This document shows positions 19,279-30,741 of a stretch of DNA of 30,743 nt, piece by piece (positions within the stretch are counted from its first letter, which is position 1; each line of letters starts with the position of its first letter). A program made the position numbers and the translations under genes. The notes beneath the pieces were generated by a model. It was not told the origin of the DNA. It saw only the letters and a list, made by a program, of their open reading frames with translations, and searched no databases. The DNA comes from Xanthobacteraceae bacterium (lineage in GTDB: Bacteria > Pseudomonadota > Alphaproteobacteria > Rhizobiales > Xanthobacteraceae): assembly GCA_041491825.1 (NCBI GenBank), contig JBGPVT010000001.1, forward strand, positions 1 through 30,743, in the 5' to 3' direction.

Positions 19279-19355
19279 TGGTCGGAGTGGCAGGATTTGA
19301 ACCTGCGACCCCCTCGTCCCGAACGAGGTGCGCTACCAGGCTGCGCTACACTCCG
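19279..19355 (-). tRNA. tRNA-Pro(CGG)
   Basis: CGGAGTG acceptor, CCTCG-TTCGGGA-CGAGG anticodon arm, GGTTCAAATCC T-arm, encoded CCA; 77 nt. Confidence 0.97.
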
Positions 19356-19454: not shown

Positions 19455-19529
19455 TGGGGCGTAGCCAAGTGGTAAGGCAGCGGATTTTGATTCCGCCATT
19501 CCCAGGTTCGAATCCTGGCGCCCCAGCCA
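19455..19529 (+). tRNA. tRNA-Gln(TTG)
   Basis: TGGGGCG acceptor, GCGGA-TTTTGAT-TCCGC anticodon arm, GGTTCGAATCC T-arm, encoded CCA; 75 nt. Confidence 0.97.
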
Positions 19530-19606
19530 ACCAGTCCGGTCTCCACGACTGGTCCGTTTATATCGTGAGAATTCGCGCCGTTGCGGGGCTTTTGGCGTCG
19601 GGTGGG

Positions 19607-19712
19607 CAGTCTCTGGACTCCCGAATTATGAAATCGGTCGACAATTCTGCCGGAAGTCTCCGGAGACATTCGGCGATATTCCCAAATTTTTGGAAACGTA
19701 AGCCAGAGACTG
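19607..19712. repeat. Symmetric GTCTC/GAGAC inverted-repeat structure after tRNA-Gln
   Basis: CAGTCTCTGG (19607-19616) and CCAGAGACTG (19703-19712) flank the perfect palindrome GTCTCCGGAGAC (19656-19667). Confidence 0.6.
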
Positions 19713-19995
19713 GTTCGATCGTCGACTGCATGGTCGGGGTGTCAGCTTTAATGGGGGCGGTCTTAAGCTACGACTGCACCAATGACGCGCCTGACCCAAT
19801 AACTGGCGCTCCCTGCGTAGCGGCAAGCGTCTAAAATATGCAGCAGCTAATCACTGAGAGGCCCTTTGGTAAAAAACCGTCACAAAGCGAAAACCGAGAA
19901 AATCTGACAAGCGCCAATATTGGTGCAAACGAAGCTGGCGCTTGGTCTGAAAACGTTTTTAAAAAGATTGTGCCACCCAAACGAAAGCGATCTAG

Positions 19996-20613
19996 CTAAG
20001 TTCCGAATCCGATATTCCCCGTCGTAAGAGAATAGGGACGTATCTTTACATCGATAACTAATCTCGCATCGTTTCTTGCATTGTTTCCTTCAAGGCCCTG
20101 CTTTGTCGGCTCTAACAACATGTCCGTTGTGACGGATACATGCGAAATCAGCTTGTCATCCTCCAACAGGCAATAGAATGGGGTCTCGCCCTCACTCGGC
20201 GTTTGATGATTTTTGCCAAGTTGGCCGCTATCACTCGGCTTCTTTAGCGCGTCAAAGACTGTCTTTAGACGGCTATCGATGTCGGCAGACTGAATGACGT
20301 TTCCCGGCGGCGTTGCGCGCAAGAAAAGAATATCCAGTGAACAAAGAAGCGCCAGTTCTTCTCTTACCAGCGGGACAAATCGATAATCTCCGAGGAGATA
20401 TCTTTGTGCCAATCCTTCCCGCATCGGCAAATTAGGATCGATATTGGGAGCATTCACGTAACTTCCGTGCTTCATTTCAGCGAGTCACGTAGTGTCCCAT
20501 AATTTTTTCAGTTGCCGATGAAAAACGCGGCGCAGTTCCTGCTTATGGTCGGGGCGCATGTCATCCCGACCGGAACCCATCAAAATCTCCTCGTAGGTCA
20601 GATGAAATTGCAT
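19996..20613 (-). pseudogene. RusA-like nuclease-fold protein interrupted by an in-frame TGA (20485-20487)
   Basis: ATG 20613 has GAGGAGG RBS; ORFs 20485..20754 and 19996..20475 are in the same frame, separated by TGA-CTC-GCT-GAA; DIDSRLKTVFDAL...EDD motif. Confidence 0.6.
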
Positions 20614-20797
20614 GAAATCACCCTCCTCGACCCGATAATCTGGGTCTGAGCATAGGATGATTTTTGCGCGCGCGACGTCACTCAACCCCAAGCAATTGGG
20701 GATAGGTAAGGGAAGTATAATAACGCCCTGCGTAGTCGCCTCTTGACGTAACATTCTGATTGCGTTCCTCTTTGGAACTTAAGGAAGGGGAATGTTC

Positions 20798-21004
20798 ATG
20801 GCTACAGGTACCGTTAAATGGTTCAACGCCCAAAAGGGATTTGGCTTCATTCAACCGTCGGATGGCGGTAAGGACGTCTTCGTCCATATTAGTGCCGTCG
20901 AGCAGGCAGGTCTTTCGAACCTGGCCGAAGGCCAAAAGGTTTCTTACGACGTGGTGACGACCGATCGCGGCAAGACCGCAGCGGGCAACCTCAAGGCGAT
21001 GTGA
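20798..21004 (+). CDS. cspA: Cold-shock protein (CspA family), island copy
   Basis: RNP1 KGFGFI, RNP2 VFVHIS; 60/68 aa identical to 17827..18033; symbol denotes the family. Confidence 0.95.
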   Translation: MATGTVKWFNAQKGFGFIQPSDGGKDVFVHISAVEQAGLSNLAEGQKVSYDVVTTDRGKTAAGNLKAM

Positions 21005-21009
21005 TGTCC

Positions 21010-21031
21010 GCGGTGGCGCTCGCGCTACCGC
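21010..21031. terminator. GC-rich hairpin between the convergent csp and recombinase genes
   Basis: GCGGTGGCG-CTCG-CGCTACCGC. Confidence 0.45.
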
Positions 21032-21079
21032 AGCATCAAGTACTGATTTTGCGGCGTCGAAAATATTCCATAATGGACG

Positions 21080-22663
21080 TTATGCGGCGCCGAATCGATC
21101 GACCTGTTTTGACCCACCGCTGAGTCCGCACGCCTGGATCTGTGCGGTCCACGATAGCACCGCTGCCCTTTTAAGGCTCTTTAGGTTCATGGAAGCTGGC
21201 TGCCTGCCGTCGAGAATTGCCGACGTGATGGTTGGGGCAAGAAATGCGAACCGCGACATTTCGCGAATGACCTTAGGATGGAGGTCTATGGCCGCGGCTA
21301 AGTCCTCGATCGCTTCATATTGACCACTTTCAAGCGTTCGAAGCCAGTAATGAGCTCGAGCAATTGCTTGAATTAGAACTTGGCTTTGTTTTTTCGCCGC
21401 GCGTTCATCGTCCCCTTCAAGTCGAGCACTTGATTTAAACGGCATTTGCCAGGGAATTGAGAATTCAGTCTGATCGGTATTCTCGCCGTTTTCTTTAAAC
21501 GTAATACGGATTGCCTCCTTTGAAAGCACGATGCGCGCTACGCACTTGTTCAGGAGTTCGCCATCAGATTTGGTAACTCCATCCACTGCCCAAGAACGCA
21601 CGGCAGCAACCACTTTCGACTCGATCGCCGGCGCTGAAGCGCGCGCAAGTGATCCAACGCTTTCCCGCTTACCCCGTAGGAGCGCGGAACTTACGTAGTA
21701 GCGATGTCGAACATTGTTCTTTGTGGAAAAACTCGGGCTCATCCGATTACCGCAGTCGTCGTACAATAGACCATCCAGAATTGATTCACTTTCGGAACGC
21801 TTGACGCGCCGTTCGATCGAGTTGCTTTTCAAAAGTGCTTGAACTTCATCAAATGTCTTAAGGTCGATGATGGGCTCATGCTCACCGGAAAAAGATGCGT
21901 CTCGATGGGTAGTCTTTCCAATATAGACTCGGTTCTTGAGAAGATAGGCGAGGGGACCATACGTGAATGGGATGCCGCCTACCGTCTTTTTGTCCGTCAA
22001 GAGTCCTTTCTTTGTGAAAATCTGTTTTGAATTCAGATCATCGACAAGCGTTCGAAGAGACTTCGCCTCGATATATTGATCAAAAATGTAGCTGACAGTT
22101 TTCGCGTCGGATTTATTTATCACGAGTTTCTTGTCAACGGCATCATAGCCGAGCGGAACGCTTCCCCCCATCCATTTCCCCTTTTTGCGTGAGGCGGTAA
22201 ACTTGTCGCGGACGCGCTCGGAAGATAATTCTCGTTCGAACTGGGCAAATGAAAGAAGGACGTTGAGTGTTAGTCGTCCCATAGAAGTCGTCGTATTGAA
22301 TTGCTGCGTTACCGCAACGAAGGACACCGAGCAGGTGTCGAAGATTTCGACAAGCTTAGCAAAATCGGCGAGTGAGCGGGTGAGACGGTCGATCTTGTAA
22401 ACGACAATCACGTCGATTAACCCGGCCTCGATATCCTTGAGCAAACGTTTAAGCGCAGGTCGCTCCATGTTGCCACCGGAATAGGCAGGATCGTCGTAGC
22501 GCTGCGGCAGAGTCTTCCAGCCTTCATGCGCTTGCGATTTAATGTAGGCTTCACAAGCCTCTCGCTGCGCGTCGAGTGAATTGAATTCAAGCTCGAGTCC
22601 ATGCTCGGTGGATTTCCGGGTATAGATCGCGCATCGGATTAGTTTAGTCGCGGCCGATTTCAT
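21080..22663 (-). CDS. Large serine recombinase (resolvase + recombinase domains)
   Basis: CAIYTRKST (catalytic Ser), YDDPAYSGGNMERPAL, VYKIDRLTRS, FAQFERE, GGSVPLGY, YIGK..HEPII. Confidence 0.93.
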   Translation of the reverse strand: MKSAATKLIRCAIYTRKSTEHGLELEFNSLDAQREACEAYIKSQAHEGWKTLPQRYDDPAYSGGNMERPALKRLLKDIEAGLIDVIVVYKIDRLTRSLADFAKLVEIFDTCSVSFVAVTQQFNTTTSMGRLTLNVLLSFAQFERELSSERVRDKFTASRKKGKWMGGSVPLGYDAVDKKLVINKSDAKTVSYIFDQYIEAKSLRTLVDDLNSKQIFTKKGLLTDKKTVGGIPFTYGPLAYLLKNRVYIGKTTHRDASFSGEHEPIIDLKTFDEVQALLKSNSIERRVKRSESESILDGLLYDDCGNRMSPSFSTKNNVRHRYYVSSALLRGKRESVGSLARASAPAIESKVVAAVRSWAVDGVTKSDGELLNKCVARIVLSKEAIRITFKENGENTDQTEFSIPWQMPFKSSARLEGDDERAAKKQSQVLIQAIARAHYWLRTLESGQYEAIEDLAAAIDLHPKVIREMSRFAFLAPTITSAILDGRQPASMNLKSLKRAAVLSWTAQIQACGLSGGSKQVDRFGAA

Positions 22664-23173
22664 CGGGCATCATCTCGTGCTTCTGATGCTTGAGACTGGT
22701 ATTTCGCCTTGTCGTCTAGCGTTGATTTTCGCAGACCGAAGAAGCGCGGTCCGTTCCAACGAGCGCCGGTGATTGTTCGGGCGATTTCGGAAAGGCTCGT
22801 GTAGTTCTGCTCCTCGTAGCTAACCCCCCCCATCGACGACCGTTACGCGATAGGTCTTTCCTTTCCATTCGCGAATGAGAATTGCGCCGGCCTTGATTCT
22901 GCGGGGTAATTCGATGCGCCCGCTGGGCGTCTTAGAAATCGCTTTGATCAGCCGATCAAGCTCGCCGCGAGCCGAAGAAGGAAGCCCGCCGAATGCTTTT
23001 TCCTGAAGGCGATATGCAATTGTTCGGCGCAATAGATCAGGGCCAAATGCGGAAGGAGGCTCCTTCCGATAGAGTTCGCGGTAACGATATCGAAGTTTAC
23101 CGATCGTTAGCGGCGGCAGAAGATTCAGTTCTGCTTCAATATCGGCATCAGCCATTTTTTCCAGAGCTTGCAT
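22660..23173 (-). pseudogene. DUF2924 protein frameshifted in a G8 homopolymer (22824-22831)
   Basis: Frame stops at ..VTVVDGGG* (22820); with G7 it continues VSYEEQNYTSLSEIARTITGARWNGPRFFGL.. to TGA 22660 overlapping the recombinase ATG (170 aa). Confidence 0.8.
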
Positions 23174-23336
23174 CGGTTACTATCCCCTCGCGGCGGTGCT
23201 GCACATGCATGCTCCGGAGGGGTCAAAAAGCCAGCAGCTAGAAGGTGCTGCTTGCACCCATAGCGGGAAATTGCGCCCTACAACGGCACAATTTGTTGAG
23301 CGCAAAATTCTAGTAGGTCACCGGACCACCCGGTCA

Positions 23337-24762
23337 TCAACGGGTGTGATAAATTCCAAAACTAGCCATGGAGGGCGTAGGAGCGAAGGCTCTCTTTAGT
23401 GCCTGGGAGAAGGCATCGACTTGATCGTTATTTCTGCCTTGCGGGAACCCCAGTAGCTCACGCCGAAATTCCTCGAGCCAACTCGCATGTCTGGGCACTA
23501 ATACAGCCCCAGCCTCAATGGGAGCGGTCTGCGCGCTCATACGCAGCACCTTGTCGCCGTCCGGAGTTATCGGAATTGCATGGATATCCATTTGCTTAAG
23601 ATCCTGAATTAGACTCATACCGGAACCCTTATTCTCGGTGATCAATACATAGTTCGCGGTCATCGGTCGCCAATGCCGATGTAACTCGATAGCTTTTTTC
23701 TTAAGTCCTGGAAAATCTAGCCGCGCCCGGAATACGTCGAGCAGGTATACCGTTTCGCGTCGAACCAGCAGCACGACGCAAGCAGAATAATCGGCAAGCT
23801 CGCCGCTGCTCATCGCAGTATCCCAGCTGACGATGATGCGATCCGTTGGTCCCGGCGTAGCGGGAGCGTCGTAGAACTTAAACCAAGACCATTTGACGAG
23901 GTTGCCTCCAATCGGAATCGGCGTCTGCTGGTATTGTGCCGCGAATCCGAGCGAGCCCATCGCTCGCTTAAGTTCGTCGAGCGCCGCCAATGACTCCCTT
24001 TCGGGATGGAGCAACACTTCCGGCCGCGCGACGATAAATCCGCCCACCTCCTAGTGGTATGGTCTCGTCCGTTTCGGCGATAGCTGGGAGGTTAAGGTGA
24101 GTCCAGCCGCCCTGATCGAGCAGATGGCCGACGAGGTCTTCTGGATGCAGACGCTGCATCACTAAGATGATGGCGTCATCGACCTTGCTGTCGAGGCGCG
24201 ACAGGAGTGTGTTCGAGTACCACTGGAGGACGTTCTCGCGCGTCGTTTCCGATTGGGCATCCTGTGGCTTCATCGGATCATCGATGACGATCAAGTTGCC
24301 GCCGCGCCCGGTCAGGGTGCCTCCTACCGAGGTCGTAAGCCGGAATCCGCGTGCGGTGGTCATGAACTCGAATTCCGTATCTTTCGTGCTGCTGATGCGG
24401 GTGCCGGGAAATAACCGGCGATAGAGCGATGAGCGCATCAATGCTCTGCAGTCGTTGGCGTGCTTACGGGCAAGCACTTCGGAATAGCTCACGCAAATAA
24501 TCCGTCGTGTCGGATCGTGTCCCAACACGAACGCCGGCAGGGCAACGGACGCGCAAATTGACTTCAGGCTTCGCGGTGGGATCGTAATGATGAGCCGGCG
24601 CGTCTCGCCCCGGATAACCTTGGTCAGCGCAGAGGTCATGGCCTCAAGGTGCCAGTTGAGCATAAGCTCGCTCCCTCCCGACATGATCCGGAAGACCGCC
24701 TGCAGGAAGGCATAAAGGTCCGTGCGCATCGCCGCGTCGACGAGGAGGCGATGCTCCTTCAT
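23337..24762 (-). pseudogene. Phage terminase large subunit-like gene split by a frameshift near 24021
   Basis: ORF 23968..24762 carries ATPase motifs (IPPRSLKS, LIVIDDP, VMQRLH); ORF 23337..24047 carries the RNase H-like nuclease (SWDTA, DYSA, NDQVDAFSQA); joined product about 474 aa. Confidence 0.8.
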
Positions 24763-25268
24763 GGCTTGTCTCCCAGCGGTGTGGAAGCGCCTGCCGACTT
24801 GGGAGTCTCGTCCGCCTCGTTAGTTTGGCTTTCCGAGCGACTGGGTTCGACCCCGTGCCGCATTAAAAAGTCTGCCAGTATCGCCTCATCGGCGGCGCTA
24901 ATATTCCCATCGACACTTTCCTCACCTTGACCCTCCCCGCGCTCGATACTCAGCATGAGGTTGACCATCCGGAGGATCTTAGGATCACCGTTCAGTGCTC
25001 GTCTGAAGGCCGAACGAACGAGCGCCTCAAGGTTCGACATACGTAATTCGCGTTCGCCTTCCCGAATTTTAATCTGTTCCTTCATTACCTTCGCCACGGT
25101 GGCGTGTAACGTAGGAGGCCGCCGGGGGCGTCCTTTTGGATTACCCGACTGATTTGGTTTAAAGCGCGTTTCCTTCGGCGGTTTTCCAAAACCCACGCGA
25201 TAGGGTTTCTTTTCAGAGTCGTCGGATTGATTCTCGGACACTTTTTTATTTTCTTTTTCGCGCGCCAT
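24759..25268 (-). CDS. DUF5681 domain protein (occupies the small-terminase position)
   Basis: YRVGFGKPPKETRFKPNQSGNPKGRP motif; ATGA overlap with the TerL start. Confidence 0.85.
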   Translation of the reverse strand: MAREKENKKVSENQSDDSEKKPYRVGFGKPPKETRFKPNQSGNPKGRPRRPPTLHATVAKVMKEQIKIREGERELRMSNLEALVRSAFRRALNGDPKILRMVNLMLSIERGEGQGEESVDGNISAADEAILADFLMRHGVEPSRSESQTNEADETPKSAGASTPLGDKP

Positions 25269-25273
25269 TGCCG

Positions 25274-26728
25274 TTACCTATCCTCGACGGTTGGATCGGT
25301 AACTGCCGATTGAGACCGATGGCTCGCAACTTCTTCGAAAACCAAACCTGTCTCGACGTGGACAGCGTCCTTGCCGCTAATGGCTTGCCAGCGCCGAATT
25401 GCGACATCGACGTAGCGTGGGTCGATTTCCATCCCGCGGGCCTGCCGGCCGACACGTTCTGCTGCAAGCAGCGTCGTGCCCGAGCCGCAGAAGGTATCGA
25501 GGACGATTTGGTTTCGGTGTGTGCAGTCCTTAATGGCATCGGCAACCAAGCTTACCGGCTTGACTGTTGGGTGAGCGCGCAAGTCGTCCATCCGCCCGGT
25601 GCGAAACGTATTAGTGCCGGCGTATTTCCAGACGTTGCTTCGCGAGCGGCCGTGACGGCCGAGTTCGACCGTATTGAGGTGAGGCGAGGGGCCAACTCGA
25701 AACACGCCAATTAGCTCGTGCTGGCTACGGTAGAAACTGCCTTGTCCGGCGTTAGATTTCACCCAGGTCACAAGGTTGAGCATCGAGTGATAAACCGCGC
25801 GGCCGGCCGTAACGAGTTCTCCGATGTGGCGCCAATCCATGCACACGAAATGCACGGCACCATCGATCGAGACCTGGGCTGCTAGGGCGAGCGATTCAGT
25901 GAGGAAGGTCGTGAAGGCTTGCTGGGACATCTCGCCAGAGGCCATCGCGAATTCCCCGTGCTTAACGCGTCCCCGTCCGACGACGCTCCGAATAGCTACG
26001 TTGTAGGGCGGATCGAGAAATGCCACATGGGCGCGCTCGAACCCCATGAGCCGGTTCAGGTGAGTGGAATCGCGCGCATCGCCGCACAGAAGGCGATGCT
26101 TGCCGAGCTGCCATAGGTCACTGGGTCGGGTGACAGCCGGACCGGCAAGGTGCGACGGGTCGATGTCATCGGCAGGATCGGCTGCTTCGTCTTCGAAGTC
26201 AGCTAGGAGGACATCGATTTCCGCTGGCTCAAAGCCGGTGACCGTAATATCCAAGCCATCCTCGACGAGAAGCTCCGGCAAGCTCACAAGTTCGCTCGCC
26301 AAGCGTTCTCGGTCCCAGCCGGCGCTTTGCGCAATTCGGTTGTCGGCCAGAAGCAGCGCCCGCTTCCTGGCCTCGGTCAGGCCATCGATGACGATAGCCG
26401 GAACGGCCTTGAGCCCCAACATCCTTGCAGCTTCGAGCCGCCCGTGACCGCCAAGAAGCAAACCGTTCTCATCTATGAGTACAGGTGATGTAAATCCGAC
26501 AGCGCAGATGCTGTTTGCAATTTGGCGTATCTGCTTCTTCGAATGCGTATGCGCGTTGAGTGGATGCGCCTTGATCTGCTCGACTGCGACTGCCGCGGTT
26601 TGACGAATTTGGTTCTGGGTCAGGAAACGCGCATTGTGCGCGCGCGATTCTAATGGGGAAAAGTAACCTTCATCGACATGCAGTTTGCCAAGTTGTAGGT
26701 CGGGCTTTTCGTTCTTTGGAAATACCAT
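25274..26728 (-). CDS. ParB/Srx N-terminal domain fused to an N6/N4 DNA methyltransferase (beta class)
   Basis: ParB-like NAHTH..GF..PVLID..GHGRLEAA; motif IV LDPPYN before motif I DTFCGSGTT; HPTVKP; start uncertain. Confidence 0.9.
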   Translation of the reverse strand: MVFPKNEKPDLQLGKLHVDEGYFSPLESRAHNARFLTQNQIRQTAAVAVEQIKAHPLNAHTHSKKQIRQIANSICAVGFTSPVLIDENGLLLGGHGRLEAARMLGLKAVPAIVIDGLTEARKRALLLADNRIAQSAGWDRERLASELVSLPELLVEDGLDITVTGFEPAEIDVLLADFEDEAADPADDIDPSHLAGPAVTRPSDLWQLGKHRLLCGDARDSTHLNRLMGFERAHVAFLDPPYNVAIRSVVGRGRVKHGEFAMASGEMSQQAFTTFLTESLALAAQVSIDGAVHFVCMDWRHIGELVTAGRAVYHSMLNLVTWVKSNAGQGSFYRSQHELIGVFRVGPSPHLNTVELGRHGRSRSNVWKYAGTNTFRTGRMDDLRAHPTVKPVSLVADAIKDCTHRNQIVLDTFCGSGTTLLAAERVGRQARGMEIDPRYVDVAIRRWQAISGKDAVHVETGLVFEEVASHRSQSAVTDPTVEDR

Positions 26729-26998
26729 GGTGCAGCTCCGATAGGGTGCGGAGCCGCCAAATAAAAAAGCGGGCCTCCGCGATGATTACCTAAGACCCTG
26801 CCAAGCAGAGCCTCAGACCCATCGGGCGTCCCGCCCTTACTTAGACGCTACCTGCCTTACGATTGCATCCCGCGCACGTAAGACACTGGCGCCAGGCATC
26901 ATCGTTATCAATTAGAACTGATGATATTTCAAGAGAAAAAGTCGTATTTGAATCCAAAACATTCGCGGAATCTGCCTTACGATGATTTTTTACAAGCA

Positions 26999-27031
26999 AA
27001 ATTCCCTGTTCTGCGCCTAAATTTCCTGTTC
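26999..27031 (+). repeat. Direct repeat AAATT(C/T)CCTGTTC x2, 20-bp period
   Basis: 26999-27011 AAATTCCCTGTTC and 27019-27031 AAATTTCCTGTTC. Confidence 0.6.
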
Positions 27032-27128
27032 CTTTCTGCGCGTTTAAAATAGCTCCGCGCGATCGATAATTCGGAGTTATTTGCCATTCGCGTCGAAAAT
27101 CATCGTCGACGATATCCAAATCCCACAC

Positions 27129-27164
27129 TCACTGATCGACTTTTCATAATTTTCCGATCAGTGA
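27129..27164. repeat. Perfect 10-bp inverted repeat with 16-nt AT-rich spacer
   Basis: TCACTGATCG-acttttcataattttc-CGATCAGTGA. Confidence 0.6.
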
Positions 27165-27209
27165 CTAGAGTTCTGGCGTGCGAATTGAGTTTAGTGAGCG
27201 AGATGATCA

Positions 27210-27283
27210 ATGTCCGCTTTGCCCCCAAAAGCGGATGTTCGACCGTGGTCGCGGAATGTTCGCTATGTGCCACAAGCAGACAT
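27210..27283. repeat. Degenerate double-hairpin ATGTCCGCT...AGCGGACAT-type repeat
   Basis: ATGTCCGCTTTgccccCAAAAGCGGATGT and ATGTTCGCT..AGCAGACAT; resembles a common Rhizobiales intergenic repeat (recalled, unverified). Confidence 0.55.
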
Positions 27284-27291
27284 CGCTGCGA

Positions 27292-30200
27292 TCAATGACG
27301 AATTGTATTTGCTACGAATAACCCGTGTGAATGATCGAGGTCGTGACCGCCGCCGAACGCTTGGTTTCTAGCTGCGTTTTGTAGAGGCTGCGACGCGAGC
27401 GACTTTAGCTGTGAAATCATGTGCTGCCGCAGCAGTTCGGAAAACTCGTCAGGGGTGACCGGCCTGCTGAAGAAATAGCCTTGGATCTCGTCACAGCCAT
27501 GATTTCGCAGGAATGCCTCCTGCTCTGGCGTTTCAATTCCCTCAGCGACGACAGTGAGGCCCAGCACTTTGCCCATACTGATAATAGCCTCCGCGATCGC
27601 ATTGTCTTCGGCATTCATAGGTATCTCGCGGATGAACGAGTGATCTATCTTCAGTGTGTCAATCGGGAACCGCTTGAGGTACGCCATCGACGAATAGCCA
27701 GTCCCGAAATCATCAATGGCCAGGCGCACCCCCATTTGTTTGATGGCAGCGAGCAGCTTGATCGCCTGCTCCGCGTTCTGCATCACCATGCTCTCGGTAA
27801 TCTCCAGCTCCAGCAATTCCGGCGCTAGGCCGGTCTCTTGAAGCGCGCTGGCAATGTCTTTGAGTAGGTTTTCGTTGGCGAATTGGCGCGCCGACAAGTT
27901 GACGGCCACACCTATCGGCAACAAGCCCTCTCGCTGCCAGGCCATGTTTTGTGCGCACGCAGTCTCCAACACCCATTTGCCGATCGGCACAATCAACCCC
28001 GTATCTTCAGCCAATGGAATAAACTGCGAGGGTGACAGGTTGCCGAGCTCCGGATGGTGCCAGCGCAACAGTGCTTCAACGCCGGTGATCCGTCCGGTCG
28101 CGAGATTCTGCTTAGGCTGGTAGTGCAAGAAGAACTCGTTGCGCTCCAAGGCATGGCGCAAGCCTGTTTCGAGCTTCAACCGCTCGATCGCTCGCCCCTT
28201 GATATCTCTGGAATAGAACCGGTAGTTGTTCTTGCCTTCGTCTTTGGCGCGATACATGGCGATGTCGGCGTTTTTCATCAGCGATTGCTCGTCCTGCCCG
28301 TCTGCCGAATACATCGAAATGCCGATACTTGCGGTCACCCGGCATTCCTGTCCCATCAGATCGATCGGTTGAATAACAGCGGAAAGGATTTCACGCGCGA
28401 CTGTCTTGACCTGCTCTATCTCGTTCACCCCCTCCACCAACACCACGAACTCGTCGCCTCCAAGGCGAGCAACGGCCTCGTCCGATCGCAGAACTTGAGT
28501 CAGGCGTGCAGCCGTTTCCTTCAGCAGCGTGTCCCCGAGGGCATGACCGAGGGAATCGTTGATGGTTTTGAAGCGGTCAAGGTCGATGAACAGCACGGCG
28601 AATTTTCCGTTACGGCGTCGCGCGGATTCGATCGCAAGATTTAGCATCCGACTAAACTTCGCTCGGTTGGGAATACCCGTAAGTGCGTCATGCGTTGCCA
28701 GGTATTGGATGCGCTGTTCTGAGCGCTTACGGTCGGTAATGTCCTGGGCGACGCCGCGATAACCCTTGAACCGACCATGGTCATTGAACATCGGCTCGCC
28801 ACTAACGTTGAAATAACGATGCTCGCCTTCGAAAATGTAAGATATGACAACGTCGCGGTAGGGCTTGTGGGCCTCTTGTGGTCCGCGGTAGGATTCTGAT
28901 CCGCCATCCACAACATCAAAGCCAATCTCCTCGGCCGTTTTTCCAAGGTAATTTTCGAAAGTCGCTTTTCCGCGACCTTCGAGTCGAATAAAGCGGAAGT
29001 CGCTATCCTGCTCCCAGTACCAATCCGAGGATAACTCAGTCAGGTTGCGGAAACGTTCTTCGCTCTCGCGCAGCGCCTGCTCGGATTGCCGGCGTGCCGT
29101 CACGTCGCGCAACATGCCACGGAACCCAATGGGCTGTCCGTGCGCGTCTTTGATGAGATGAACCGAGCCTTCCACCAGGACTTTACTGCCGTCCTTGCGC
29201 ACCATTGCCCAGTCGTAGCCCATCGTCGGTGTGCCAGTGCGGTAGACATCGTTGAATGTCTTAAAGACGTTGGCCGCCACTTTTGGCGACTGGTAGTCGC
29301 GATTGTTCATCCCTAGCAACTCGTGCTCCGAATACCCGAGCAGCTGGCAGAATGCAGCATTGAATAAGACAAGATTGCCTTTCAGATCGACTTGATAATA
29401 GGGCTCCGCCAGGCTCTCGAGGATGGCGCGGTGCTTCTCTTCGCTTTCACGTAGCGCTTGCTCGACGCGCTTGCGTTCGGTCTCGCGCTCAAAATTATCG
29501 AGCGCAAAGGAGATGTTTTGCGCCATTCGCTCCAGGAGAGCGACGATCTCGTCATCGAAGGCGCGCTTCTCCCCCGAAAAGAAGAGTAATATCCCGGCAG
29601 CGCAACCGCCCTTGAAAACCGGCACCGCGGCGCTGGCCGCGACTCCCTCGACTTGTTCCCGCCAGAGTCGCGTGCGCTCATCTTTGAGATAGTCATTACT
29701 GACGCAAGGTTTTCGCGTCCGAAATGCATTACCAACAAGACCCTGTCCCTCTGGTTTCGCCTCGTCAACTGATACGCGGAGCTCGCGTAGTCGCTCCACG
29801 CCTGTACCGGCAGCCGCCTCGATTCTCATCCAGACCGTCTCGGGATCTGGAATGAGCACCGCCGCGGTGATGAATTTACCGCCGTGCACGGCGGCATCGC
29901 ATACCTGCTGATAAAGCGCCTCGGGCGATTGGGTGCGCATGATCGCTTCGTTGGTGGCGCTGATTGCCGCGTACATCTTGCCGAGCCGTAACGCCGCCTG
30001 CTCGGCGCGCCTGCGCTCGGTGACGTCGCGCGAGCTGGTGACGATGACCCAGCTTCCCCCCATGCGCAGCGCGCGTCGGCTTACTTCGACCCATGCTCCG
30101 CGCCCGTCTTTACCTCGACCGAGAACTTCAGTGGTGAGGCCCTCGTCTCCCTTCGCAATGACCTTATCGTAGATGCGCCGGAGCTCCTTGCGGCCCGTGC

Positions 30201-30741
30201 GCAAAATATCCTGAGGCCCGAGCTTCAACATTTCTTCCCGTGAATAACCAACTTGGCGGCAAGCGGTCTTGTTGAAATCCAAAAAACGCATCGCGACAGG
30301 ATCAACCAAATAGACGGGGTCCCCCGACGTATCCATGGCGGCGCGGAAGCGCAGTAATTCCTCTTCGCGCCGGTATCGCTCCGTAATATCTGAAGCTATT
30401 CCGCGATATCCCCTGAAATAGCTATCAATGTCGAAAACCGGCTGCCCACTGCAACTGATAACGCGCGACTCATTTCGCGCATTAACGTACGTGTAGAGCG
30501 CGTCCTTAAAAGGCTGTCTCGCCTCAAGCTCGGCTTTGTGCGAATTCCAGTTGCCACCTTTAGCGATGGGCTTGGGTCCCCAAAATGCTTTGCCAATAAA
30601 ATCCTTGGCGTCTATCGGCGTGCTTTTCGAATTCGAAGCTTTAAACGTGGTGAAACGATAATTTTCGTCTTGTTCCCAATAGAAATCAGCGACGAGTTCG
30701 AGAAGATCATTGAGAGGCTCCTCGCACGGTCGCAGGGCCCG
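27292..30741 (-). CDS. Multi-PAS/GAF GGDEF-EAL c-di-GMP signalling protein (5' end beyond the window)
   Basis: Frame is open from the window edge to ATG 30336 and adds another PAS (FYWEQDENYRF..FRGYRGIASDIT); then PAS, GAF, PAS, PAS, ARLGGDEF, VEALLRW, DDFGTGYSS. Confidence 0.92.
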   Translation of the reverse strand, partial: RALRPCEEPLNDLLELVADFYWEQDENYRFTTFKASNSKSTPIDAKDFIGKAFWGPKPIAKGGNWNSHKAELEARQPFKDALYTYVNARNESRVISCSGQPVFDIDSYFRGYRGIASDITERYRREEELLRFRAAMDTSGDPVYLVDPVAMRFLDFNKTACRQVGYSREEMLKLGPQDILRTGRKELRRIYDKVIAKGDEGLTTEVLGRGKDGRGAWVEVSRRALRMGGSWVIVTSSRDVTERRRAEQAALRLGKMYAAISATNEAIMRTQSPEALYQQVCDAAVHGGKFITAAVLIPDPETVWMRIEAAAGTGVERLRELRVSVDEAKPEGQGLVGNAFRTRKPCVSNDYLKDERTRLWREQVEGVAASAAVPVFKGGCAAGILLFFSGEKRAFDDEIVALLERMAQNISFALDNFERETERKRVEQALRESEEKHRAILESLAEPYYQVDLKGNLVLFNAAFCQLLGYSEHELLGMNNRDYQSPKVAANVFKTFNDVYRTGTPTMGYDWAMVRKDGSKVLVEGSVHLIKDAHGQPIGFRGMLRDVTARRQSEQALRESEERFRNLTELSSDWYWEQDSDFRFIRLEGRGKATFENYLGKTAEEIGFDVVDGGSESYRGPQEAHKPYRDVVISYIFEGEHRYFNVSGEPMFNDHGRFKGYRGVAQDITDRKRSEQRIQYLATHDALTGIPNRAKFSRMLNLAIESARRRNGKFAVLFIDLDRFKTINDSLGHALGDTLLKETAARLTQVLRSDEAVARLGGDEFVVLVEGVNEIEQVKTVAREILSAVIQPIDLMGQECRVTASIGISMYSADGQDEQSLMKNADIAMYRAKDEGKNNYRFYSRDIKGRAIERLKLETGLRHALERNEFFLHYQPKQNLATGRITGVEALLRWHHPELGNLSPSQFIPLAEDTGLIVPIGKWVLETACAQNMAWQREGLLPIGVAVNLSARQFANENLLKDIASALQETGLAPELLELEITESMVMQNAEQAIKLLAAIKQMGVRLAIDDFGTGYSSMAYLKRFPIDTLKIDHSFIREIPMNAEDNAIAEAIISMGKVLGLTVVAEGIETPEQEAFLRNHGCDEIQGYFFSRPVTPDEFSELLRQHMISQLKSLASQPLQNAARNQAFGGGHDLDHSHGLFVANTIRH

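Follow-up and report, generated by a model that had tools for sequence, protein, structure and literature searches.

The window analysed in this study is the whole of a 30.7-kb contig (30,743 nucleotides; JBGPVT010000001.1) from a metagenome-assembled genome (MAG) of a Xanthobacteraceae bacterium (GCA_041491825.1; 1.96 Mb, 72.8% complete). Five co-oriented minus-strand genes were identified within positions 21080-26728 by open reading frame (ORF) calling and by Pfam and PHROG matches; these encode a ParB-DNA methyltransferase fusion (ParB-MTase), a DUF5681 protein, a large terminase subunit (TerL), a DUF2924 protein and a large serine recombinase (LSR). The reading which we favour, and to which we give a little better than an even chance, is that they form a copy, inactivated recently, of a compact integrative element which is site-specific, helper-dependent and satellite-like and which brings its own terminase. 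As delimited by comparison of related loci, the conserved core of this element family comprises the predicted ParB-MTase, DUF5681 and TerL genes in that order together with a DUF2924-LSR pair (in some cases preceded by DUF3489), and is devoid of capsid, portal, tail, lysis and replication genes. The five linked genes had already been described in a first-pass annotation of the window, made without database searches, and its coordinates, including the 4-nt overlaps at 24759-24762 and 22660-22663 and the 5-nt gap at 25269-25273, agree with the ORF coordinates.

Genomes (one per species) were scanned with a DUF5681 alignment, which gave 80 loci, and a second set of 80 loci anchored on DUF5681 was taken from IMG/VR; the MTase-DUF5681-TerL triad, DUF2924 and the LSR were detected with profiles built from the window proteins. 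The genome loci were mostly alphaproteobacterial and often lay beside tRNA genes, as the first-pass annotation had said of this gene set, and were also found in Gammaproteobacteria (including a Klebsiella MAG), Acidobacteriota, Planctomycetota, Melainabacteria and a Clostridium MAG. The triad was present, in the order seen in the window, in nearly all of the 80 genome loci and nearly throughout the IMG/VR loci, with DUF2924-LSR next to it in about half of the two sets taken together, and the MTase was directly upstream of DUF5681 in 83 of 90 surveyed loci. Intact copies occur in the cultured strains Leisingera sp. JC11 (L015), Albidovulum inexpectatum DSM 12048 (L058), Aminobacter sp. UC22_36 (L040) and Sedimentitalea arenosa (L027). 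DUF2924 followed by the LSR was found within 3 kb of the triad in approximately 35 of the 80 genome loci in four arrangements, a circular permutation of the window order among them, namely downstream on the same strand as in the window (approximately 18), divergent upstream (10), upstream on the same strand (3) and convergent (2); the core block measured 4.7-7.1 kb in the approximately 18 loci with the window-like arrangement. DUF3489 was encoded directly ahead of DUF2924 in 19 loci and an XRE-type helix-turn-helix regulator was found in 15 loci, neither of which is present in the window. The five-gene set proposed in the first-pass annotation recurs, but it is not the complete core, as DUF3489 and the XRE-type regulator often belong to it. 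The distribution of DUF5681 was patchy: it was found in none of seven other genomes of the window's genus, in 4 of 18 of the family and in 48 of 396 high-quality genomes of the class (approximately 12%).

Two sets of ORFs were scanned against Pfam, namely 74 of at least 180 aa lying shortly after TerL where no LSR is found downstream, and 71 of at least 150 aa from the 6 kb preceding the MTase in 21 loci arranged as in the window. Neither set had a match to portal, capsid or tail families. Among these 145 flanking ORFs no family had more than three members, and the majority encoded housekeeping enzymes. Host (metabolic) genes flanked the module on both sides in six metagenome neighbourhoods with precomputed Pfam annotation, and one long metagenome contig bore a circular permutation of the gene order, in which DUF3489, DUF2924 and the LSR come first and the MTase, DUF5681 and TerL follow further along. 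It had been allowed at the outset that homologues of the module might normally sit inside full prophages; the survey of 80 genome and 80 IMG/VR loci, with no portal or capsid gene in the 145 flanking ORFs, did not bear this out. The initial observation that the window lacks virion genes could be extended to the whole 72.8% complete MAG for the five families searched (PF04860, PF05065, PF13264, PF05133 and PF06381, with zero matches; two of the five matched no control genome either), in which the window TerL is the sole Terminase_6C match.

The closest DUF5681 relatives in IMG/VR were all located on contigs of 4-12 kb made of the module, with the LSR included in approximately 47 of the 80 loci. 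The only close match among GenBank phage records was MT839917.1, a 5,365 bp entry from human faeces labelled 'UNVERIFIED: Bacteriophage sp.', which carries only an LSR (minus strand), a ParB-MTase, DUF5681 and TerL; judged by this gene content, the record belongs to the element family and is not a phage genome. The element family would explain the 4-10 kb 'phage' contigs in viral catalogues and in GenBank which consist of the module alone. Variants were also observed in two genomes (L075 and L077) and in three IMG/VR loci (L135, L152 and L154), in which DUF5681 is followed directly by DUF2924-LSR without TerL, or by an ORF of approximately 413 aa which is not recognised by the TerL profiles.

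In 14 loci a convergent tRNA gene (mostly tRNA-Ser, also tRNA-Met and tRNA-Val) lies close to the LSR, with 170-370 bp between its 3' end and the LSR stop codon. In four further loci the tRNA was 1-2.2 kb from the LSR, and one of these (L033) has a tRNA 3' remnant at the usual distance. In the divergent arrangement, tRNA-like 3' fragments were located 1-37 bp past the TerL stop codon in three loci (L058, L015 and L048). Candidate tRNA remnants upstream of the MTase scored within the shuffled range in 11 class A loci, with the exception of one tRNA-like fragment in L063.

A unit of 6,531 bp containing core genes only was identified in Leisingera (L015:5437-11967), which starts 41 nt inside the 3' end of a tRNA-Ser gene and ends just past a tRNA-fMet-like 3' half. 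The same unit was found with 94% identity in a second genome of the genus (L203) in another sequence context and was not found in 23 other Leisingera genomes searched, and homology of the left flank stopped exactly at the tRNA-Ser 3' end in 25 of 25 Leisingera genomes. Its presence in two contexts shows that a discrete, mobile, capsid-less unit of core genes exists and has moved within at least one genus. No replication gene was found in this unit or in the conserved core. At L015:11920-11968 and the matching site in L203, the TerL end bears a 3' half resembling that of initiator tRNA-Met (anticodon loop to CCA end) and the LSR end bears the tRNA-Ser 3' end, two different tRNA halves on one 6.5-kb unit.

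Median pairwise ratios of nonsynonymous to synonymous substitution rates (dN/dS) were 0.14 for TerL, 0.18 for the MTase, 0.27 for the LSR, 0.29 for DUF5681 and 0.34 for DUF2924, in pairs which are non-independent and dominated by related Rhodobacterales; by this measure purifying selection acts on each of the five genes. In a quick maximum-likelihood tree, 98 element TerLs grouped apart from those of the three nearest isolated phages (Shimodaira-Hasegawa-like approximate likelihood ratio test (SH-aLRT) 87, under the tool's 95 mark), loci with and without a nearby LSR were interleaved, and the window TerL was placed among Hyphomicrobiales and Xanthobacteraceae copies. The nearest isolated-phage TerLs (approximately 40% identity) have an overlapping small terminase (TerS) gene upstream and a portal gene downstream. 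On viral contigs of 16-42 kb, more distant DUF5681 genes have a methyltransferase on one side and TerL on the other, after which come a DUF4055 portal and a Mu-F head protein. The arrangement in which a ParB-fused m6A/m4C methyltransferase stands just ahead of the terminase has been described as the phage 'ParB-Tls locus' (PMC6536676), so the ParB-MTase of the first-pass annotation is present in the element without being peculiar to it. Given these arrangements in true phages, the module is phage-derived.

In bona fide phages, DUF5681 stands where the small terminase would be, beside TerLs of at least two families, and on this positional evidence it is a candidate TerS. Its earlier equation with TerS is borne out by position, in that it overlaps the TerL start in the window and takes the slot between MTase and TerL in phage contigs, but not by fold: the AlphaFold model (pLDDT 71, with a disordered N-terminus in which the invariant motif SGNPKGR is situated) matched no TerS when compared with the PDB and with viral models, where the only match was another DUF5681 protein, and a DUF5681 profile found nothing among PDB sequences. 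In every case DUF2924 directly preceded the LSR, and its stop codon frequently overlapped the LSR start codon. The model of DUF2924 (pLDDT 88.9) divides into an N-terminal helical part similar to SAP/Rho-N modules and a C-terminal beta/alpha part similar to the CcrM C-terminal and SAND-type DNA-binding domains; the VIA-align matches were middling (Z 4-6.5, a range which the tool calls common), and a Foldseek search against the PDB returned nothing significant. From this model it is plausible that DUF2924 is a DNA-binding partner of the LSR; the suggestion in the first-pass annotation that it assists the recombinase agrees with its constant position and with the two DNA-binding-like domains, though the fold matches are weak.

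In the window copy, the resolvase domain of the LSR spans residues 12-164, with the catalytic-serine motif YTRKST near the N-terminus. Together with the C-terminal Recombinase domain, this is the predicted architecture of a phage-type serine integrase; the zinc ribbon (PF13408) was matched weakly (E 0.0095, under the cut-off). The window TerL has the predicted make-up of a Terminase_6-type protein (an ATPase with Walker A and B motifs and an RNase H-like nuclease) in a reading frame which is broken once. It keeps R64, K67 and S68 of the Walker A-like motif, D161 and D162 of Walker B, and the nuclease residues D315, E377, D447 and D450, and these residues of the ATPase and the nuclease are shared by at least 93% of 101 sequences.

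The impression recorded in the first-pass annotation that this copy is degraded was found to be correct, as TerL and DUF2924 carry one frameshift each and both recur in contigs from four runs. The TerL frameshift was placed between 23932 and 24014, since the intact homologue in L011 (67% identity) aligned in frame -1 to approximately 23932 and in frame -2 from approximately 24014. DUF2924 is broken by one additional G in a run of eight (22824-22831); omitting one base restores a full-length protein with all conserved motifs, which aligns end to end with 21 homologues and keeps the conserved C-terminal motif. Logan contigs of sediment metagenome runs reproduced both lesions without gaps, the TerL frameshift in runs X1, X2 and X5 and the DUF2924 G8 in X1, X2 and X3 (X1 may be the sample behind the window assembly, and Logan contigs represent a consensus). 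Given their recurrence in these four runs, the frameshifts are considered to be real and, as far as consensus contigs show, fixed in the population. Because the conserved TerL residues and the catalytic-serine motif of the LSR are still retained, the decay is regarded as recent. Judged by its broken genes, the window copy has most likely lost its capacity for packaging, and perhaps for excision too. Assembly error was considered as the source of both frameshifts and was ruled out by the agreement of the spanning Logan contigs. A slipped-strand on/off switch at G8 was also considered; there was no length variant among the Logan contigs, which hide rare variants.

In the mechanism proposed here, the LSR would integrate the element at a tRNA 3' end and excise it, with the DNA-binding-like DUF2924 (and DUF3489) acting as an accessory or directionality factor. 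DUF5681 would serve as an element-specific small terminase which recognises the packaging site of the element once a compatible helper phage makes procapsids, TerL would dock on the helper portal and then cut and pump element DNA, and the ParB-MTase would modify element DNA, as has been proposed for the phage 'ParB-Tls' locus. The comparisons above show the anatomy, the conservation, the tRNA linkage and the mobility of the element; from these we infer that an intact element would be excised and packaged in dependence on a helper, as a phage satellite with a whole terminase of its own rather than one which merely redirects that of the helper. A broader proposal, to which we give somewhat less than an even chance, is that of a large cross-phylum satellite family of new design, 5-7 kb in size (longer with cargo), tRNA-targeting, lacking capsid and replication genes and equipped with a complete terminase (TerL, and DUF5681 as TerS), a ParB-MTase and a serine integrase with DUF2924/DUF3489, which would take over the procapsids of unrelated helpers outright instead of re-aiming the helper terminase. 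The heads of Rhodobacterales gene transfer agents (GTAs) hold approximately 4 kb. As the unit measures 5.3-6.5 kb and exceeds this capacity, GTA heads, which had been named as a possible vehicle in the first-pass annotation, are unlikely to be used; no GTA head-tail cluster was recognised either: the assembled 72.8% of the MAG had neither a portal nor a capsid of the HK97 type, and the module has none.

A number of observations weigh against a helper-dependent satellite. No helper-type portal or capsid was found in the 72.8% complete MAG. With no replication gene, it is hard to see how an element of 5-7 kb would fill a phage-sized head. Terminal direct repeats and circular contigs were absent from approximately 200 fetched loci, and no circle junction was seen in the Logan contigs over the window, where the tRNA and the LSR are 1.55 kb apart and no far boundary of the element could be placed. 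To these are added the missing TerS match for the DUF5681 fold, the non-independence of the dN/dS pairs and approximately 30 triad loci without an LSR within 10 kb, which would fit a host-retained function, loss of the LSR or truncated contigs.

It was considered very unlikely that the module is a plain prophage remnant, that is, the packaging and integrase ends of a temperate phage from which the intervening virion and replication genes were deleted. The same set is found intact in several phyla, its junctions tight and each gene under purifying selection, portal and capsid genes are missing from every surveyed locus, the element TerLs cluster as a single group separate from phages, and the 6.5-kb unit with its tRNA-like ends moved between Leisingera genomes; as independent deletions would not keep yielding the same product, the explanation is largely refuted for the family as a whole and holds only in the sense that the window copy, with its two frameshifts, is dying. 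What speaks for it is the existence of comparable arrangements in phages: in alphaproteobacterial prophages, of which some have serine recombinases, ParB-MTase, TerS and TerL make up the normal PAC module (PMC6536676), distant DUF5681 genes occur in full phage contigs, and Wolbachia prophage regions contain a DUF2924 gene followed by a recombinase, as well as a ParB-methylase near the terminase (PMC10299305).

The approximately 30 loci in which the triad is intact and under purifying selection with no LSR nearby would also be expected of a host-beneficial anti-phage module on a mobile island, in which the chromosomal TerS-like/TerL pair would compete for or sabotage the procapsids or DNA of an infecting phage and the MTase would mark self DNA, as a defence resembling restriction-modification (R-M) or acting by packaging interference, the LSR serving only for movement of the module. 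Type I R-M, SNF2 (DrmD/ZorD-like) or mads genes are located directly upstream in a few class A loci, and the MTase lacks a cognate nuclease other than the TerL nuclease domain; yet PADLOC matches the MTase alone, such defence neighbours are a minority in the 21 loci, where most neighbours are housekeeping genes, no defence cargo was found in the window, and satellites interfere with helpers too, so that this rather unlikely proposal overlaps with the satellite and is not exclusive of it. We regard as distinctly unlikely a chromosomal packaging initiator, an integrated element which would not itself be passed on whole but whose terminase would begin headful packaging where it sits, loading helper capsids with adjoining chromosomal or island DNA in a manner resembling lateral transduction or GTAs. 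This leaves the LSR, the tRNA-like ends and the discrete movement of the 6.5-kb unit unexplained, and the capacity of Rhodobacterales GTA heads (approximately 4 kb) counts against it, even though there is no replication gene to supply concatemers, the core is far below phage-head size and the elements occupy variable regions linked to tRNAs, alongside IS elements and further island DNA. Lateral transduction of defence islands by phages, as well as by phage-inducible chromosomal islands (PICIs), which also speaks for an initiator, is documented (PMC12829572).

A helper-dependent satellite with its own terminase, the reading favoured here, would resemble PICIs, including Staphylococcus aureus pathogenicity islands (SaPIs), and the minimalist PICMIs, which are likewise small, site-specific and integrative, lack virion genes, are thought to ride in helper capsids and encode an integrase and packaging-specificity genes; the XRE-type regulator in 15 loci is a further likeness to PICIs and SaPIs. 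The element shares with these a site-specific integrase (the LSR) and the absence of virion genes (no portal or capsid in the 145 flanking ORFs), but has no replication module (primase/helicase, origin) of its own. PICIs usually have tyrosine integrases, their own primase/replication module and only a TerS or a redirecting factor, whereas the element family has an LSR with DUF2924/DUF3489, no replication gene, a complete TerL and a ParB-MTase. Capsid-forming PICIs (cf-PICIs) are satellites which encode their own TerS and TerL for element-specific packaging; they differ in also encoding capsid, portal and head-completion proteins and in borrowing only tails, and no such genes were found in or beside the surveyed elements or in the window MAG. 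Portal, capsid and tail genes after the terminase, and replication and lysis genes, as expected of an intact temperate prophage, were absent from the element and present in the nearest true phages.

The 'ParB-Tls' locus of temperate phages in the Paracoccus virome (PMC6536676) is alike in having a ParB-fused methyltransferase immediately before the terminase subunits, but there the terminase is followed by portal and head genes, whereas in the element DUF2924-LSR, a tRNA remnant or host genes come after it. Tycheposons of Prochlorococcus (bioRxiv 10.1101/2020.12.28.424599) also integrate at tRNA 3' ends, lie in variable islands and have partial tRNA copies, and a few have large serine recombinases and a PICI-like subset a packaging gene; they differ in mostly having tyrosine recombinases and replication genes, and their PICI-like forms carry terS or a capsid gene, not TerL with a ParB-MTase (bioRxiv 10.1101/2020.12.28.424599). 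A literature search, in which full-text coverage was incomplete, found DUF5681 and DUF2924 in passing mentions only and no description of terminase and serine recombinase elements lacking virion genes, in line with the first-pass remark that the gene set is without functional description, and the element family is apparently widespread and undescribed. If the satellite reading is correct, it would represent a new strategy of phage parasitism, in which the motor is brought and the shell is borrowed, and a so far overlooked way for genes to be transferred in Alphaproteobacteria, Acidobacteriota, gut bacteria and further groups. It would also provide testable roles for DUF5681, DUF2924 and DUF3489, and tRNA-targeting large serine recombinases with their natural partners, of interest for genome engineering.

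The features of the window are listed in Table 1. In PADLOC 2.0, run on the five window proteins, DUF5681, TerL, DUF2924 and the LSR had no match.

Table 1. Features of the module and its flanks in the window (positions as in the 30,743-nucleotide stretch)
Feature	Position	Strand	Evidence and remarks
ParB-N/N6_N4 DNA methyltransferase fusion, 484 aa, intact	25274-26728	-	PF01555 E 5e-29, weak PF02195; PHROG 498 E 4e-115; PADLOC Type II MTase
DUF5681, 169 aa, intact, small-terminase position	24759-25268	-	PF18932 E 8e-19; 4-nt overlap with TerL start
TerL, one frameshift	23337-24762 (pieces 23968-24762 and 23337-24047)	-	PHROG 38 E 2e-55 and 7e-47; Terminase_6C (PF17289)
DUF2924, frame broken	22660-23173 (pieces 22820-23173 and 22660-22833)	-	PF11149 on both pieces; stop overlaps LSR start
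Large serine recombinase, 527 aa, intact	21080-22663	-	Resolvase PF00239 E 4e-37, Recombinase PF07508 E 2e-14; PHROG 95 integrase E 1e-101
tRNA-Gln(TTG), candidate attachment tRNA, 3' end facing LSR 3' end	19455-19529	+	ARAGORN
tRNA-Pro	19279-19355	-	tRNA prediction
Spacer between tRNA and LSR, element membership uncertain	19530-21079		215-bp same-genus segment (to approximately 19745), two ORFs, cold-shock gene
ORF, 159 aa	19996-20475	-	No Pfam, PHROG or PADLOC match
ORF, 89 aa	20485-20754	-	No Pfam, PHROG or PADLOC match
Cold-shock protein gene	20798-21004	+	Read from sequence; 76 bp from LSR stop
Non-coding stretch upstream of MTase	26729-27291		No tRNA remnant found; 80-bp repeat at 27205-27286
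PAS/GAF/GGDEF/EAL signalling protein, >1149 aa, contig ends inside	27292-30741	-	Lower G+C than left half

The LSR and tRNA-Gln have the convergent geometry seen in 14 family loci, at a distance of 1551 bp (compared with 170-370 bp in those loci). The first-pass placement of the module next to a tRNA is correct as regards the presence of the tRNAs, but not as regards immediate adjacency, as the cold-shock gene and two ORFs lie in between. A second copy of the tRNA-Gln 3' end was not found within the window, and inverted or direct repeats bounding the module were limited to chance-level pairs. The G+C content drops from approximately 0.65 to 0.50-0.59 from approximately 17.5 kb on, and this low G+C continues through the GGDEF/EAL gene to the contig end without a far boundary being found. 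Assembler depth falls from 13.3 to the left of the tRNAs to 5-9 to the right of them (summed contig depth being a weak measure), which suggests that the right-hand region is missing from some related cells. Logan contig joints skipping 11-12 kb were disregarded, as their sides are just 20 letters long.

On the right-hand side, the GGDEF/EAL gene has no close counterpart in same-genus genomes and may be island cargo. The 80-bp intergenic repeat is located just past the stop codon of this gene, has many same-genus copies of 76-87% identity and is probably a miniature repeat element.

On the left-hand side, homology of the spacer to three same-genus genomes (G001, G002 and G006) stops near 19745. 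The closest DNA matches of the cold-shock gene in three same-genus genomes are directly upstream of the tRNA-Pro/tRNA-Gln pair, and its position at the LSR reflects either a rearranged local order or a paralogue. A 240-bp segment (19505-19745), consisting of the last 25 nt of tRNA-Gln and the 215 bp downstream, was found in approximately six copies in G001, a genome without DUF5681, as direct repeats 1.4-3.1 kb apart on three contigs, and has the appearance of a repeated end, belonging to another island which targets tRNA-Gln or to a cassette array. The two adjacent ORFs within the spacer could be a small two-gene cargo, for example a toxin-antitoxin pair.

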